A stretch of DNA of 40,519 nucleotides, taken from the IMG/VR virus record IMGVR_UViG_2529293139_000011, one strand, 5' to 3'. The translations under genes and the position numbers were made by a program. The notes under the pieces were generated by a model. The model searched no databases. It saw only the letters and a list, made by a program, of their open reading frames with translations, and was not told the origin of the DNA. How positions within the stretch are numbered: the stretch's first letter is position 1; each line of letters starts with the position of its first letter. Source of the stretch: a virus. Lineage: Duplodnaviria; Heunggongvirae; Uroviricota; Caudoviricetes. This document shows positions 1 through 40,519 of the stretch, in pieces.

Positions 1-933
1 ATGGACAACGACAAAATTGATCAACACAGCGACGAAATTGAAGTTGAGAGCGAAGAAAAAGAGCGCGGCAAAAAAATAGAAATAGATGAAGACCGACTCC
101 CCTCCCGGGCGATGGCAATTCATGAGCATATCCGCCAGGATGGTGAAAAAGAGCTGGAACGCGACGCAATGGCGCTACTGTGGTCAGCCATTGCGGCGGG
201 TCTGTCGATGGGCGCTTCGTTACTGGCAAAAGGGATATTTCAAGTCGAACTGGAAGGTGTGCCGGGCAGCTTCTTGCTGGAGAATCTCGGTTATACCTTT
301 GGTTTTATTATCGTCATTATGGCCCGCCAGCAATTATTTACCGAAAATACCGTGACTGCGGTACTACCCGTCATGCAAAAACCGACAATGAGCAACGTCG
401 GCTTACTTATACGGTTATGGGGCGTCGTGCTGCTGGGTAATATTCTCGGGACAGGTATTGCGGCGTGGGCATTTGAATATATGCCTATCTTCAATGAAGA
501 AACTCGCGATGCATTTGTCAAAATCGGCATGGATGTGATGAAGAACACCCCCAGCGAGATGTTTGCCAACGCGATCATTTCCGGCTGGCTGATCGCCACT
601 ATGGTTTGGATGTTTCCTGCAGCGGGTGCGGCAAAGATTGTGGTGATTATATTGATGACCTGGCTTATTGCCCTGGGTGACACCACCCATATCGTGGTCG
701 GTTCTGTTGAAATCCTCTATCTGGTGTTTAACGGTACGCTGCACTGGAGCGATTTCATCTGGCCCTTCGCACTACCTACTTTAGCGGGGAACATCTGCGG
801 CGGCACCTTTATCTTCGCGTTAATGAGTCATGCACAGATTCGTAACGACATGAGCAATAAGCGTAAAGCAGAAGCACGCCAAAAAGCAGAACGTGCGGAA
901 AACATTAAGAAAAATTATAAAAACCCGGCATAA
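1..933 (+). CDS. yfdC: Inner membrane protein YfdC (formate/nitrite transporter family); host gene flanking the prophage
   Basis: 310-aa ORF starting at ATG at position 1; product recognised as E. coli YfdC with multiple hydrophobic segments; sits immediately upstream of argW as in E. coli K-12. Confidence 0.85.
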   Translation: MDNDKIDQHSDEIEVESEEKERGKKIEIDEDRLPSRAMAIHEHIRQDGEKELERDAMALLWSAIAAGLSMGASLLAKGIFQVELEGVPGSFLLENLGYTFGFIIVIMARQQLFTENTVTAVLPVMQKPTMSNVGLLIRLWGVVLLGNILGTGIAAWAFEYMPIFNEETRDAFVKIGMDVMKNTPSEMFANAIISGWLIATMVWMFPAAGAAKIVVIILMTWLIALGDTTHIVVGSVEILYLVFNGTLHWSDFIWPFALPTLAGNICGGTFIFALMSHAQIRNDMSNKRKAEARQKAERAENIKKNYKNPA

Positions 934-13884: not shown

Positions 13885-15302
13885 TACTCAATCCTTATCT
13901 GGCAGCCAGACAGAGTGACAGGTGACTTCGTGATAATGCGCAATTTGAAGCCGACATTTTTCCTGATGCGCCCTACTCGCTTCCACAAAACACGTTTGTC
14001 GTAAACGAACGGTTCATTCTGCTCAATCATCTGCTCACGCCCGTAATTGATGCCGTCAGTGGTTGCAGAGAGGAACAGGCGGTCGGCGTACTGAGCTACG
14101 CCAGTGGATGATTCCACCTCCAGATCGAAGCATCTGGCGTTATCCGCTTTGAACAGTGGAGTAAACAGCAGGTGTTCCTGTTGCTTGTCGTACTGGCTGC
14201 TGATATCGAACTGCAGTTTCCCGGTAACAGATTCCAGCTTATCGCCGCACGTTATCTGATTGCCTTCGTAAATGAAGTCGATAGCGCGGTACACATCGTC
14301 ATATAAGCCTGTTTTCAGCACACACCATTGCGGACCATTGGCGCTTGAAGATGCGTCGTACACGAGGACGTGGCGCGGAAGGTGGATAATCAGCAGTTCA
14401 TGCGCATCAAATCGCAGCGATTCCATCACACCATCAGCCAGTTCATCAGCAGTGTAGGAGCGGAGGATTTTCTCAATGCTCGCGCTGGCGATTGGTGATA
14501 CCTGACCGGAACCGATGATGTACACAGACGGCGCACCTGTTGCCGGATTGCTGATGAACGCATAAGAATCGGCGAACGGCGTTTTGCAGTAAGTTCCGGC
14601 AATGCCTTTCTGCACCATCAGCGATGGTTGTGCAACATACAAAGCAGCCCCAACAGTGGTTGCACCAGTCAGGGAGAAATATTCAATCGTCGACGAACCA
14701 AAGCAGACTATGAAGTCTCGCCATGTACCGATGCCGATGATTCCGTCAGGCTGAGACTCTGCGCGATATTGTGCGCTGTAGCGGTCAGGATGCGATTCGT
14801 CTTCAAGGTCAGTGATAAACCATGAATCAGTGCCGTCTTTTGACCACGCATAACGCCCACGTAAACGAGTAATGTCGCGAACCGAACCTAACTCATACTG
14901 CGTGAATCCGCTGTCTGTAGGCCAGTTTGAGACGGTTTTAACCGTGCCATCATAGCGGTATTCGACCAGTTGCCCGTTAACACCTACCGCCTGTGATGTC
15001 CGACCATGTGCCATTGATACGCGACCACTTCCGGCAACATCACCGACTTCACTTTCGCCTTTGTACAGCTTGCCACCACACACGCGATAAACAGCATTCT
15101 GCGCCATGTTGTACTCGACGCCACGCGATACGCCGTTCACATCAGAACGTTTGGCAATGCCCGGGAATGAGCGAAGATATCCGCTGCTGTTCAGGATTTC
15201 TTTGGGTGTAGCCAACATATTCACTGGCAGATAGTCGATATAGTCGGCGTTTCTGAAGTCTTTGCCGACACCTTTCATAAGCGGAAGTTGCTGAATAGGC
15301 AT
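13884..15302 (-). CDS. Tail hub protein (gp10-like)
   Basis: 472-aa ORF, same length and position as P22 gp10. Confidence 0.75.
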
Positions 15303-15310
15303 TTATTCAC

Positions 15311-15793
15311 CTATGCGTTTGGGATATCGCCATCAATCAGAGGGAGATCGCCTGGATAATATCGGTCAGATGTGAACACGTCATATTTATTACCCTGTCC
15401 TACAGGAAAATCTCCACGTCGTCGCATTGAAGGAACAACCAGAGTGTCGGTCATCAAGGCATCATATGAGCGTTGGGCGTTACTGAGAACTTGCGGAGTT
15501 GGTTCAAGGCTGTAATCAGATAGCATTCTCAGCAATAACTGATAGCCTACTGCGTGTTTGTATTTTCTTGGAAGACCTGACTCATCATCTGGTAATGGCT
15601 GCTCATCTCCAGTTGAGAAAGCGTAACCAATGTCGCCGGGGTTAATCATCCACTCGGACATCATATCTTCCAGATCATTTACACCATCTTCAATTGATTG
15701 CGGCTCAACATCAGTCAGCGATGCATTAGAAGCAATAGCAAACTTACGAAGCGCAAAAAGGACGATCTCACCCTTTGTCAGTACTGTTGCCAT
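15311..15793 (-). CDS. Tail accessory / head-completion protein (gp4-like)
   Basis: 160-aa ORF downstream of the coat gene; size and position as P22 gp4. Confidence 0.7.
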   Translation of the reverse strand: MATVLTKGEIVLFALRKFAIASNASLTDVEPQSIEDGVNDLEDMMSEWMINPGDIGYAFSTGDEQPLPDDESGLPRKYKHAVGYQLLLRMLSDYSLEPTPQVLSNAQRSYDALMTDTLVVPSMRRRGDFPVGQGNKYDVFTSDRYYPGDLPLIDGDIPNA

Positions 15794-27516: not shown

Positions 27517-27693
27517 TCATTTCCTCGCACGATGTCTTAGCCACCGGATATCCCACAGGTGAGCCGTGTAGTTGAAGGTTTTTACGTCAGATTCTTTTGG
27601 GATTGGCTTGGGTTTATTTCTGGTGCGTTTCGTTGGAAGGTATTTGCAGTTTTCGCAGATGATGTCGGTGAAACTTCGTCGCTGTCGCCTCAT
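27517..27693 (-). CDS. ninE: NinE
   Basis: ORF 27517-27783; start placed at the internal ATG giving [58 protein letters not shown], recognised as lambda NinE-like. Confidence 0.7.
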
Positions 27694-28217
27694 GCCGCCC
27701 TCCTGACGCCCTGCCCGATCGCCATCAATGCCGCTTTGGATACGGTAGTAAACATCCGTCGAGGACTGATGAACGGTCGCCAAATCAGCAGCATGGAGCC
27801 TTTGCTGTTTCCCTTCTTCTCCAACCCTGTCGATGGTTCGATAAAATTAATCCGTCCATCAGTGATAATGCGAACTTCGTCGACACTCTCCAGAGCCTTG
27901 CTGAACCATCCGACTGACATATCCTCTGGCACAAGCATAACTACCGTCTGTCGCTGTTGTATGCACTGCTCAGCGGCTTTTTCCACCCACGGCCTGATAT
28001 TGCTGTACGGTGGGTTATTCCAGATTGCACCGTGGCTTACCCACTCAGAATTGAGCGCGTCGTCGGCCTCAGTTAGCCAGTGAGCACACAGAGCATTTTT
28101 GTCGCTCGCTGCCGAATCCAGCCAGAATCCAAACTCAATATCCAGTGCATCAAAAAGCCAAAGCGGCGTTTGCCAGCAGTCCTTGTCGTGTGCTGGCGTA
28201 TTTGATTTGATAGTCAT
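27690..28217 (-). CDS. DNA N6-adenine methyltransferase (phage Dam-like orphan methyltransferase)
   Basis: ORF 27690-28277; start placed at ATG 28217 ([22 protein letters not shown]...), directly after the ninB stop; contains the NPPY catalytic motif (IWNNPPYSN). Confidence 0.75.
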
Positions 28218-28654
28218 GCAGCCCGATCTCCCCATCTCGCTTTCCACTCCAGAGCCAGTCTCGCTTCGTCTGACCACTTAACGCCACGCTCTGTACCGAA
28301 TGCCTGTATAAGCTCTAATAGCTCCGCAAATTCGCCTACACGCATCCTGCTGGTTGACTGGCCTATTACCACAAAGCCATTCCCGGCAAGGTTAGGAACA
28401 ACATCCTGCTGCTTTAATGCTGCGGTAAACACACACTTCCAGCTTTCTGCATCCAGCCAGCGACCATGCCATTCAACCTGACGCGAAACGTCACCAAGGC
28501 AAGCCCAAAGCTTTCGATTCTGGTCTAAGCTGCGGTTGCGTTCCTGAATGGTTACTACGATTGGTTTGGTTGGGTCTGGAAGAATTTGCTGTACCGCGTG
28601 AATAGCGTTTTGCTGATGTACTGGGGATCGAATTTCAAAGGTTAGTTTTTTCAT
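28214..28654 (-). CDS. ninB: NinB (Orf family recombination mediator)
   Basis: 146-aa ORF MKKLTFEIRSPVHQQNAIHAVQQILPDPTKPIVVTIQERNRSLDQNRKLWA... recognised as lambda NinB. Confidence 0.85.
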   Translation of the reverse strand: MKKLTFEIRSPVHQQNAIHAVQQILPDPTKPIVVTIQERNRSLDQNRKLWACLGDVSRQVEWHGRWLDAESWKCVFTAALKQQDVVPNLAGNGFVVIGQSTSRMRVGEFAELLELIQAFGTERGVKWSDEARLALEWKARWGDRAA

Positions 28655-28871: not shown

Positions 28872-28902
28872 AATAAAAAAGGGCTACTGTGTAAATAGCC
28901 CC
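28872..28902 (-). terminator. tR2-like intrinsic terminator between the replication genes and the nin region
   Basis: Minus-strand AGGGGCTATTTACACAGTAGCCCTTTTTTATTGG: 6-7 bp GC stem plus T-run directly after the helicase stop. Confidence 0.65.
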
Positions 28903-28928
28903 TGTTATTAGCTCAGTGATGTAGATGG

Positions 28929-33951: not shown

Positions 33952-34038
33952 ATGGAAGAAGAATTTGAAGAGTTCGAAGAGCATCCGCAGGATGTGATGG
34001 AACAATACCAGGACTATCCGTATGACTACGACTATTGA
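33952..34038 (+). CDS. Very small, highly acidic hypothetical peptide
   Basis: 28-aa ORF MEEEFEEFEEHPQDVMEQYQDYPYDYDY with GAGGTGAG upstream. Confidence 0.25.
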   Translation: MEEEFEEFEEHPQDVMEQYQDYPYDYDY

Positions 34039-34222
34039 TAAGAATCAATGGTGTGGACAATTCAAACGATGCAATGGATGCAAGTTGCAATCGGAATGCA
34101 TGGTTAAGCCTGAAGAAATGTTTCCTGTAATGGAAGATGGGAAATATGTCGATAAATGGGCAATACGAACGACGGCAATGATTGCCAGAGAACTTGGTAA
34201 ACTGAACAACAAGGCTGCCTGA
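34022..34222 (+). CDS. Small Cys-rich hypothetical protein
   Basis: 66-aa ORF with CGQFKRCNGCKLQSEC; early-left operon. Confidence 0.4.
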   Translation: MTTTIDKNQWCGQFKRCNGCKLQSECMVKPEEMFPVMEDGKYVDKWAIRTTAMIARELGKLNNKAA

Positions 34223-37422: not shown

Positions 37423-37716
37423 ATGCCAGCGCCTCTGTATGGTGCGGACGACGCGCGCCGCTGTTCCGGCAATTCCGTATCGGAGGTGCTGGATAAATTC
37501 AGAAAAAACTACGATCGGATAATGTCGCTACCGCAGGAAACGAAAGAGGAAAAGGAATTTCGCCATTGTATATGGCTTGCAGAGAAAGAAGAACGCGAGC
37601 GAATTTACCAGACATCAATCCGACCATTCCGCAAAGCCACATATACCCACTTCCCTGAAATTGACCCGCGCCTGCGTAATTACCGATCACGCTATGGCGC
37701 TATCAGTAATGACTGA
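37423..37716 (+). CDS. Hypothetical protein
   Basis: 97-aa ORF with AAGGA upstream. Confidence 0.45.
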
Positions 37717-39098: not shown

Positions 39099-39695
39099 AT
39101 GACCACTATTACCAAAGAACGTATTGAATTGTTCATTAAAAATCCGCTTGAAAACGGACTTACCCGTGGCGAACAAATGGAACTGGCACGAATTGCTCTG
39201 GCATCGCTGCAACGCGAACAGATTCGCCACGAGCATGCCAAATGGTCTGACTCCACATTTGGCTGCGTTGGCCCCATTGGTCCGCTGAAACATCTCTCAA
39301 AAGAGGCACTGGAAGCCGCAGCCGAACCAGACGATCTTAGCGAGTGGGCTGATATGCAGTTTCTGTTGTGGGATGCACAGCGCCGTGCTGGCATCAGCGA
39401 TGCTGAAATTACCGCTGCTATGGAAGATAAATTGAAGATCAACATGGAGCGCCAGTGGCCTGAGCCAAAAGATGGTGAGCCTCGCTTGCACATTAAAGAA
39501 CCCGGCAACTCTCCGGTAATTCCGGATGGTTGGGTTATGGTGCCGAAGGAGTTAACCCCGGAAATGATGAGAGCCGTTCAGATTAGAAGTGAGCTTGGAG
39601 GGTATGCCACTTCCAATCTATCTGGTGCATACAATATGTTTTCTGAGTTCTGGAATGTTGCTGTCTCAGCTGCGCCTAAGGTGGATGATTTATGA
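39099..39695 (+). CDS. DUF550/DUF551-type prophage protein (putative MazG-like nucleotide pyrophosphohydrolase domain)
   Basis: 198-aa ORF; family assignment is from memory of lambdoid prophage annotations and is tentative. Confidence 0.45.
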   Translation: MTTITKERIELFIKNPLENGLTRGEQMELARIALASLQREQIRHEHAKWSDSTFGCVGPIGPLKHLSKEALEAAAEPDDLSEWADMQFLLWDAQRRAGISDAEITAAMEDKLKINMERQWPEPKDGEPRLHIKEPGNSPVIPDGWVMVPKELTPEMMRAVQIRSELGGYATSNLSGAYNMFSEFWNVAVSAAPKVDDL

Positions 39696-40318: not shown

Positions 40319-40519
40319 ATGCAACACGAACTACAGCCTGATTCACTGGTTGATTTGAAATTCATCATGGCCGATACTGGCTTCGGTAAAACCTTCATCT
40401 ACGACCGGATTAAGTCCGGCGACCTGCCAAAAGCCAAAGTTATCCACGGACGAGCAAGATGGTTATATCGTGACCATTGTGAATTCAAAAATAAGCTCTT
40501 AAGCCGCGCTAATGGGTAA
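40319..40519 (+). CDS. torI: TorI-type excisionase / recombination directionality factor
   Basis: 66-aa ORF MQHELQPDSLVDLKFIMADTGFGKTFIYDRIKSGDLPKAKVIHGRARWLYRDHCEFKNKLLSRANG recognised as E. coli TorI (AlpA/Xis-like winged helix); the window ends at its stop codon. Confidence 0.85.
   Translation: MQHELQPDSLVDLKFIMADTGFGKTFIYDRIKSGDLPKAKVIHGRARWLYRDHCEFKNKLLSRANG

Follow-up and report, generated by a model that had tools for sequence, protein, structure and literature searches.

The locus considered here raises the question of whether a DNA methyltransferase and a distant restriction-alleviation-type gene, both carried by the same prophage, serve jointly to protect the phage from host restriction. 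The two genes reside in a stretch of 40,519 nucleotides (IMG/VR record IMGVR_UViG_2529293139_000011, referred to as the window), which begins with host DNA and continues into an Sf6/P22-like prophage inserted at argW. A first-pass annotation of this DNA had interpreted an orphan Dam-like N6-adenine methyltransferase of the nin region, along with a Lar-like zinc-ribbon protein encoded at a separate place, as a probable anti-restriction pair. Our analysis leads to a different view of their relationship. The methyltransferase (Table 1) very probably corresponds to the phage enzyme M.EcoVT2Dam, which would complete the methylation of GATC sites in progeny DNA, whereas the Lar-like gene would constitute an independent mosaic module and not the second half of a functional pair.

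The open reading frame (ORF) of the methyltransferase on the minus strand extends over positions 27690-28277 from a GTG codon and contains an in-frame ATG at 28217, which overlaps the stop codon of ninB in an ATGA junction and defines a protein of 175 residues. This protein matches the Pfam family PF05869, 'DNA N-6-adenine-methyltransferase (Dam)', with an E-value of 6.4e-65 and 218 bits (cutoff 28.1), covering profile positions 1-167 of 169, and the NCBIfam equivalog TIGR01712, 'phage N-6-adenine-methyltransferase', with 266 bits (cutoff 97), and it is also matched by phrog_111. The catalytic motif IV, NPPY, can be read directly from the sequence, and upstream of it the stretch LD(A/S)AA (residues 33-37) is conserved without exception among 34 aligned homologues. 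Profile, motif IV and Rossmann fold all identify the protein as a member of PF05869/TIGR01712. Conversely, we found no match to PF02086, the D12 class of host-type Dam proteins that includes the enzymes of E. coli and T4. Since a Pfam analysis of the neighbouring genes, encoding NinB, NinE, NinX, NinF and NinG, revealed no restriction endonuclease, the methyltransferase is an orphan enzyme, and both its original assignment as such and its placement in the nin region were borne out.

Insight into the class of the enzyme was obtained from a model predicted by AlphaFold, which shows a single Rossmann-type domain with a predicted local distance difference test (pLDDT) score of 74 and a predicted template modelling score of 0.76. 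The model best matches gamma-type N6-adenine methyltransferases and resembles M.TaqI and HsdM more closely than it does E. coli Dam, which in the structural comparison scores 5.9, with T4 Dam scoring 5.2. The order of the motifs, with I preceding IV, would fit such a gamma-like class. Foldseek searches with the model returned weak matches only and a phmmer search of the protein against PDB sequences yielded nothing meaningful. As judged from the model, the protein looks like a bare catalytic domain that leaves no space for a target-recognition domain of its own. The term 'Dam-like' used in the first-pass annotation is thus appropriate with respect to the target site, which is GATC as detailed below, but not with respect to the family, which is PF05869 instead of PF02086.

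The assignment of the target site follows from the relationship to a known phage gene. The protein is identical in 175 of 175 residues to the product of orf32 of the phage VT2-Sakai (BAA84315), which is located at the same position between ninB and ninE. In the VT2-Sakai record AP000363, orf32 is the sole gene annotated as methylase-like, and in the whole genome of this phage it is the sole ORF of at least 80 residues that contains a [DNS]PP[YFWH] motif. Because orf32 is the only methylase candidate in VT2-Sakai, its product can by elimination be equated with M.EcoVT2Dam. Radlinska and Bujnicki reportedly cloned the latter in 2001 and characterized it by restriction-digest assays, which were unable to exclude off-target activity. 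The target of M.EcoVT2Dam is stated as GATC (PMC6602927) and VT-2 is among the phages listed with Dam-like enzymes (PMC7556043). A relative of the Dam protein of phage T1 was found experimentally to methylate GATC, with marked off-target activity (PMC4996451). From the identity to orf32 and this literature, we infer that the methyltransferase of the window would methylate the adenine of GATC.

Genes of this kind are widespread. Among 5426 complete E. coli genomes, 1566 (about 29%) contain the methyltransferase gene, at 2193 places in total, and it is found in 201 phage records at 99% protein identity or higher and in 43 records at 95-99%. Carriers include HK97, HK544, IME10, Sf101, Sf6, Phi24B and many Shiga toxin (Stx) phages. 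Among the E. coli matches listed, the gene is always annotated between NinB and NinE, and homologues with 60-87% identity are spread across the Enterobacterales. The gene is thus an already known and characterized one and an ordinary feature of lambda-like prophages. Its annotation is not uniform: the Sf6 genome (NC_005344) contains an intact copy at 14913-15437 between ninB and ninE, with 98.9% identity, whereas the RefSeq table lists no coding sequence at this place and the numbering proceeds from Sf6p50 to Sf6p52.

The surroundings of the gene allow a prediction of when it would be expressed. ATGA overlaps connect the 70-residue ORF preceding ninB with ninB, ninB with the methyltransferase gene and the methyltransferase gene with ninE, a tight packing that is typical of nin regions (PMC8022706). 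A hairpin resembling the terminator tR2 separates the gene for a DnaB-like helicase from the nin genes, and in Sf6 a terminator at the equivalent position is annotated as homologous to lambda tR2. Between this hairpin and the methyltransferase gene, we found no promoter-like site. Since the gene is located downstream of a terminator-like hairpin and has no promoter-like site of its own, it should be transcribed only by N-antiterminated transcription from pR and thus behave as a delayed-early lytic gene. This prediction agrees with the expression of the dam gene of Phi24B, whose product matches the VT2-Sakai protein at 100% identity and which was one of four tested genes that track the lytic cycle after induction (PMC3342100).

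We then consider what a methyltransferase of this specificity could contribute. The window contains 95 GATC sites compared to 167 ± 12 in dinucleotide shuffles and to 205 expected from trinucleotide frequencies, which corresponds to a ratio of observed to expected sites of 0.46. Among the four-base palindromes, only CTAG is more strongly depleted. The depletion indicates that GATC is a liability for this phage. Avoidance of GATC is a classic trait of enterobacterial phages, which has been attributed to mismatch repair involving MutH. As an observation on the distribution of the sites, those at positions 2305, 2401 and 2498 are found in or just past the end of int, upstream of a gtrA-like gene.

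In the virions of lambda, P22 and L, the DNA is left incompletely methylated by the host Dam (PMC8022706), and the function of Dam enzymes in phages is described as not well understood (PMC7556043). In the mechanism that we consider most probable, induction or infection would lead to N-antiterminated transcription from pR and to production of the methyltransferase, which would finish the methylation of GATC on rapidly replicating phage DNA, part of which escapes methylation by host Dam. Progeny DNA would consequently exit the cell fully methylated at the 95 remaining sites, irrespective of the level of host Dam. The likely benefit would be a shielding from restriction enzymes of the MboI/DpnII type and from MutH, both of which attack unmethylated or hemimethylated GATC. 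Anti-restriction is thus one candidate benefit among several. Because GATC is also the site of the host Dam, the methyltransferase would add no new motif in E. coli. Its protective effect would be confined to enzymes whose action is prevented by methylated GATC. The counter-restriction role assigned to the two genes in the first-pass annotation is a reasonable and conventional proposal for each of them taken singly. The overlap with host Dam also affects the experiment that had been suggested along with it, a comparison of the methylomes of a lysogen and a cured strain in which failure to detect a new motif would count against the enzyme. Such a comparison would be uninformative since the GATC sites of the host carry Dam methylation in any case and the methyltransferase is expected to act during lytic growth, and the suggested outcome would wrongly reject a genuine methyltransferase activity.

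The depletion of GATC can also be read as pointing to a role in which restriction plays little part. The enzyme might mainly perform housekeeping on phage DNA, with full methylation of GATC preventing nicking by MutH of replicating or recombining DNA, or, as a further option, it might participate in Dam-dependent regulation, such as the stability of lysogeny or the phase variation of gtrABC. The presence of ninB and ninG, both recombination genes, around it would be in line with the former. With respect to the latter, host Dam is needed for stable lysogeny of phage 933W, according to work cited in PMC3342100, and the gtr genes of P22 are controlled by Dam and OxyR (PMC8022706), while the prophage described here contains ORFs in the position of gtrABC. 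The lytic expression of the methyltransferase speaks against a function in lysogeny maintenance or in gtr phase variation in lysogens. Taking both options together, we regard such a housekeeping role as possible but tentative, and it overlaps with the completion of GATC methylation favoured above, which leaves open the benefit that is selected.

A second alternative concerns the specificity itself. At the levels reached during lytic growth, the enzyme might methylate GATC together with related or even many adenine contexts and thus act as a broad anti-restriction methylase comparable to M.EcoGII or Hia5. We consider this quite unlikely, as the literature assigns GATC to the identical protein and as the non-specific enzymes known so far are members of different families, with M.EcoGII being a beta-class protein of 349 residues and Hia5 a member of the alpha class. 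A somewhat different version, which we hold to be a shade less probable still, starts from the apparent lack of a target-recognition domain and assumes that the enzyme methylates beyond GATC at lytic levels, as in the T1 Dam relative. If this was true, Ral, the two-part Lar-like protein and the methylase would provide the phage with three layers of protection against restriction-modification systems, with the methylase acting broadly instead of being redundant with host Dam. An identity of the methyltransferase with M.EcoGI or M.EcoGII, which was also considered, was rejected as these are 349-residue enzymes of the beta class.

The proposed pairing of the methyltransferase with the Lar-like gene was not sustained. 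The two genes are on opposite strands and 11.5 kb apart, with the methyltransferase on the minus strand in the pR operon and its presumed partner on the plus strand in the pL operon, an orientation that the first-pass annotation had not given for either gene. They also differ about tenfold in frequency, as the Lar-like gene is found in 154 of the 5426 complete E. coli genomes, and it is present in 6 phage records. In related prophages, each of the two genes occurs without the other. While the methyltransferase, the Lar-like gene and ral are all contained in the window and in Sf6, VT2-Sakai and the DETEC-P61 prophage carry the methyltransferase but neither the Lar-like gene nor ral. Conversely, in the X14-3 and E2865 prophages, NinB is directly followed by NinE with no methyltransferase in between, and both contain the Lar-like gene; ral is absent from the E2865 prophage and was not detected in that of X14-3, where only a coding sequence of 72 nucleotides is annotated as 'Ral family'. 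This independence was judged from sampled loci and not from a genome-wide statistic within prophages.

A coordinated action, in which the methyltransferase protects phage DNA while the Lar-like protein switches off type I restriction, would be suggested by the connection of members of either family with the evasion of restriction (PMC12707154, and for the Lar family its profile names) and by the joint presence of the genes in the window and in Sf6. Besides their distribution and their location in different operons, the targets of the two proteins argue against such coordination. These would not overlap, because methylation of GATC would not protect the sites of type I enzymes. We thus regard a coordinated pair as very unlikely and, since a functional connection is not supported, describe the methyltransferase and the Lar-like gene as separate mosaic modules.

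The Lar-like protein itself, a zinc-ribbon protein in the first-pass annotation, was recovered by profile searches, where it scores above the cutoffs for both PF14354 (Lar_restr_allev, 36.1 bits, cutoff 28.6) and TIGR03655 (anti_R_Lar, 59.5 bits, cutoff 39.6) and matches phrog_599 with an E-value of 1.6e-18. The E-values of the family matches of both proteins lie well outside the range of random hits. It is 99% identical to gp20 of Sf6, which is annotated as 'Lar-like restriction alleviation protein', and about 34% identical over 53 residues to the Rac protein RalR/Lar. Residues C6, C9, C31, C33, E45, A46, W50, N51 and R53 are invariant in its subfamily, and their arrangement suggests a four-cysteine zinc ribbon followed by an EAxxxWNxR helix, with zinc binding being predicted. 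The AlphaFold model (pLDDT 75) contains two beta hairpins and a helix encompassing residues 43-53, and it depicts the C-terminal extension as a beta-alpha-beta unit, although a Foldseek search with this model returned nothing, with E-values above 0.1. The extension of about 47 residues is limited to a small subfamily in E. coli, the Shigella phage Sf6 and Enterobacter, and a phmmer search run exhaustively over 1.84 billion representatives returned the same small subfamily and weak, probably spurious matches. The RefSeq annotation of the ORF is inconsistent (L006 16001-16303; L008 15001-15303). The DNA of EC7518 matches the Lar-like ORF of the window with 100% identity, yet it is annotated as a 'partial' Lar and a hypothetical protein of 47 residues, the latter of which begins at Met54, the exact start of the C-terminal extension.

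The Lar-like gene is a module of the pL operon that is translationally coupled to the preceding gene for a dATP/dGTP pyrophosphohydrolase-domain protein, and it is rarer than the methyltransferase gene. By homology to Rac Lar, its product may alleviate restriction by type IA enzymes. Rac Lar is the sole tested member of the family and alleviates EcoKI-type (type IA) restriction and enhances modification, as reported by King and Murray (1995) and cited in PMC4041452. In the same paper, the Rac protein RalR is reported as DNase toxin of the RalR/RalA system, and the protein of strain MG1655 is annotated as an endodeoxyribonuclease toxin. The Lar-like protein could thus be a DNase toxin itself, or it could serve an unrelated role by virtue of its C-terminal extension, which is absent from RalR, a possibility that would be compatible with the low identity between the two proteins. 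Nevertheless, we consider such a role unlikely, as the window contains neither an RNA antitoxin resembling RalA nor a homologue of RcbA, and as coupling within the early pL operon of an apparently intact prophage fits better with an early function of the phage. In a blastn-short search with ralA, only chance matches of 10-11 nucleotides were found in the window, and the only Rfam match in the window is a single tRNA. The reading of the Lar-like gene as part of a RalR/RalA-type toxin-antitoxin system thus found no support and appears unlikely.

Any alleviation of type I restriction by the Lar-like protein would be redundant with a gene that the first-pass annotation had overlooked. This gene encodes a near-lambda Ral and is located in the pL operon just downstream of N, a position that ral also has in lambda and Sf6. 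Ral is an experimentally characterized alleviator of type IA restriction (PMC12707154), and its close homologue is, as judged by sequence, the best-supported anti-type-I gene of the window. Another counter-defence or host-takeover function is predicted from the presence of a gene for the anti-RecBCD protein Abc2, which is found in the pL operon beside genes for an Erf-like and a single-stranded DNA-binding protein. With respect to type I target sites, the 40.5 kb contain no EcoKI site (AACN6GTGC), compared to 6.0 ± 2.3 in dinucleotide shuffles (Poisson P of about 0.003, with no correction for the large number of systems open to such a test), whereas 11 EcoBI sites are present. The absence of EcoKI sites may reflect avoidance or chance. 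Because there is no such site, plating of this phage on hosts with EcoKI would be uninformative.

Several points weigh against an assignment of the methyltransferase as M.EcoVT2Dam that completes GATC methylation in a prophage with an independent Lar-like module. The GATC specificity is known second-hand and not from the primary source of 2001, and the equation of M.EcoVT2Dam with orf32 is likewise one by elimination and not taken from that source. The model of the methyltransferase is moderately confident, with residues 1-14 and 37-46 being poorly defined. GATC is still depleted despite the presence of a cognate methylase, which implies that methylation does not fully remove the counter-selection. 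With respect to the second gene, the identity to the sole tested Lar protein is as low as about 34%, and this protein was also reported as a DNase toxin (PMC4041452). We know of no experiment that shows a fitness effect of deleting the methyltransferase gene.

Both genes are thus already known, with the methyltransferase being common and the Lar-like gene annotated as such in Sf6 and RefSeq. The anti-restriction content of the prophage would consist of Ral, the Lar-like gene and a Dam-type methylase as independent modules. The question that remains concerns biology instead of identity, namely for what reason so many lambdoid phages possess a GATC methylase when Dam is already supplied by the host. 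Candidate answers, which should be of moderate interest to phage biologists, include restriction evasion, escape from MutH and independence from the Dam status of the host. To our knowledge, a deletion phenotype of a lambdoid GATC methylase has apparently not been published.

The described genes are embedded in a prophage with a gene arrangement of the Sf6/HK620 type, whose closest phages are 611R6, 683R2, HF4s, Sf6, N7 and HK620. The integrase gene is followed by the ORFs in the position of gtrABC, which mediate O-antigen modification, a large ORF at the place of the tailspike gene and structural and lysis genes. Next, the minus strand carries the Q region, the nin region and replication genes, and the pL operon on the plus strand comes last. 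The integrase and the ORF in the position of xis are found at opposite ends of the prophage because attP is located between int and xis, as in Sf6. From this arrangement it follows that attR should be situated just beyond the window. The 70-residue ORF at the start of the nin genes is conserved but shows no match in Pfam or NCBIfam. It was also considered as a second Lar-like gene in view of its 'TEWNN' end, and rejected, with an E-value of 8 for RalR in BLASTP and 8% in hhalign against the Lar alignment.

Table 1. Coordinates of features in the window, numbered from its first nucleotide.
Feature	Position	Strand	Remarks
Formate/nitrite-transporter gene, yfdC type	1-933		Host DNA
tRNA-Arg(CCT) (argW)	1009-1083
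Integrase	1209-2402
ninE	27517..27693	(-)	PF05322, E 9.6e-43, match covering residues 31-88 of a longer ORF; start overlaps methyltransferase stop, ATGA junction GCATGAGG
Phage N6-adenine DNA methyltransferase, 175 residues	27690..28217	(-)	VT2-Sakai orf32 (by elimination M.EcoVT2Dam)
Catalytic motif IV NPPY, residues 68-71	28005..28016	(-)	Read from sequence; invariant in 34 aligned homologues
Motif I-like LDSAAS, residues 33-38	28104..28121	(-)	Putative S-adenosylmethionine-binding loop
ninB (orf recombination mediator)	28214..28654	(-)	PF05772, E 7e-54; stop overlaps methyltransferase start, ATGA junction GCATGACT
Cysteine-containing ORF, 70 residues	28635..28847	(-)	phrog_6308 (unknown function); first gene past the tR2-like terminator
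tR2-like intrinsic terminator hairpin	28879..28903	(-)	10-bp stem followed by T run
ral	34022..34222	(+)	PF11058, 162 bits (cutoff 25); phrog_1055; 65/66 identical to lambda Ral
Abc2 anti-RecBCD gene	37423..37716	(+)	PF11043, 210 bits
dATP/dGTP pyrophosphohydrolase-domain (DUF550) gene	39099..39695	(+)	PF04447, E 3.3e-42; stop overlaps Lar-like start, ATGA TTATGAAT
Lar-family protein, 100 residues	39692..39994	(+)	N-terminal four-cysteine zinc ribbon and helix, C-terminal extension of about 47 residues
Small ORF, excisionase/TorI position in relatives	40319-40519	(+)	No Pfam match; end of pL operon

In comparison to known systems, the closest counterpart of the methyltransferase is M.EcoVT2Dam/orf32, from which it does not differ in protein sequence or gene position and whose phage relatives have DNA that is 97-99% identical to the window. 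The difference lies in the host element, which here is an Sf6/P22-like prophage in argW and not an Stx phage. The Dam proteins of T1 (M.EcoT1Dam) and HP1 are likewise GATC-specific orphan phage enzymes of PF05869. The enzymes of T1-like phages are about 32-41% identical to the methyltransferase of the window, and the carriers of T1 Dam and HP1 Dam are virulent or P2-like phages, where the gene is located outside of a nin region. With E. coli Dam and T4 Dam, which belong to PF02086 and the alpha class, the enzyme has in common the GATC target and the N6-methyladenine chemistry. Lambda Ral is near-identical to the ral product of the window and bears no sequence relation to the Lar-like protein. 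The latter instead shares with Rac Lar (RalR), the prototype of PF14354 and TIGR03655, the CPFCG motif, a second cysteine pair and the EA(I/L)xxWNxR helix, and both genes map to the distal part of the early-left region, close to xis and int, whereas the second cysteine pair is CxC in the Lar-like protein and CxxC in Rac Lar, which ends without the extension of 47 residues.

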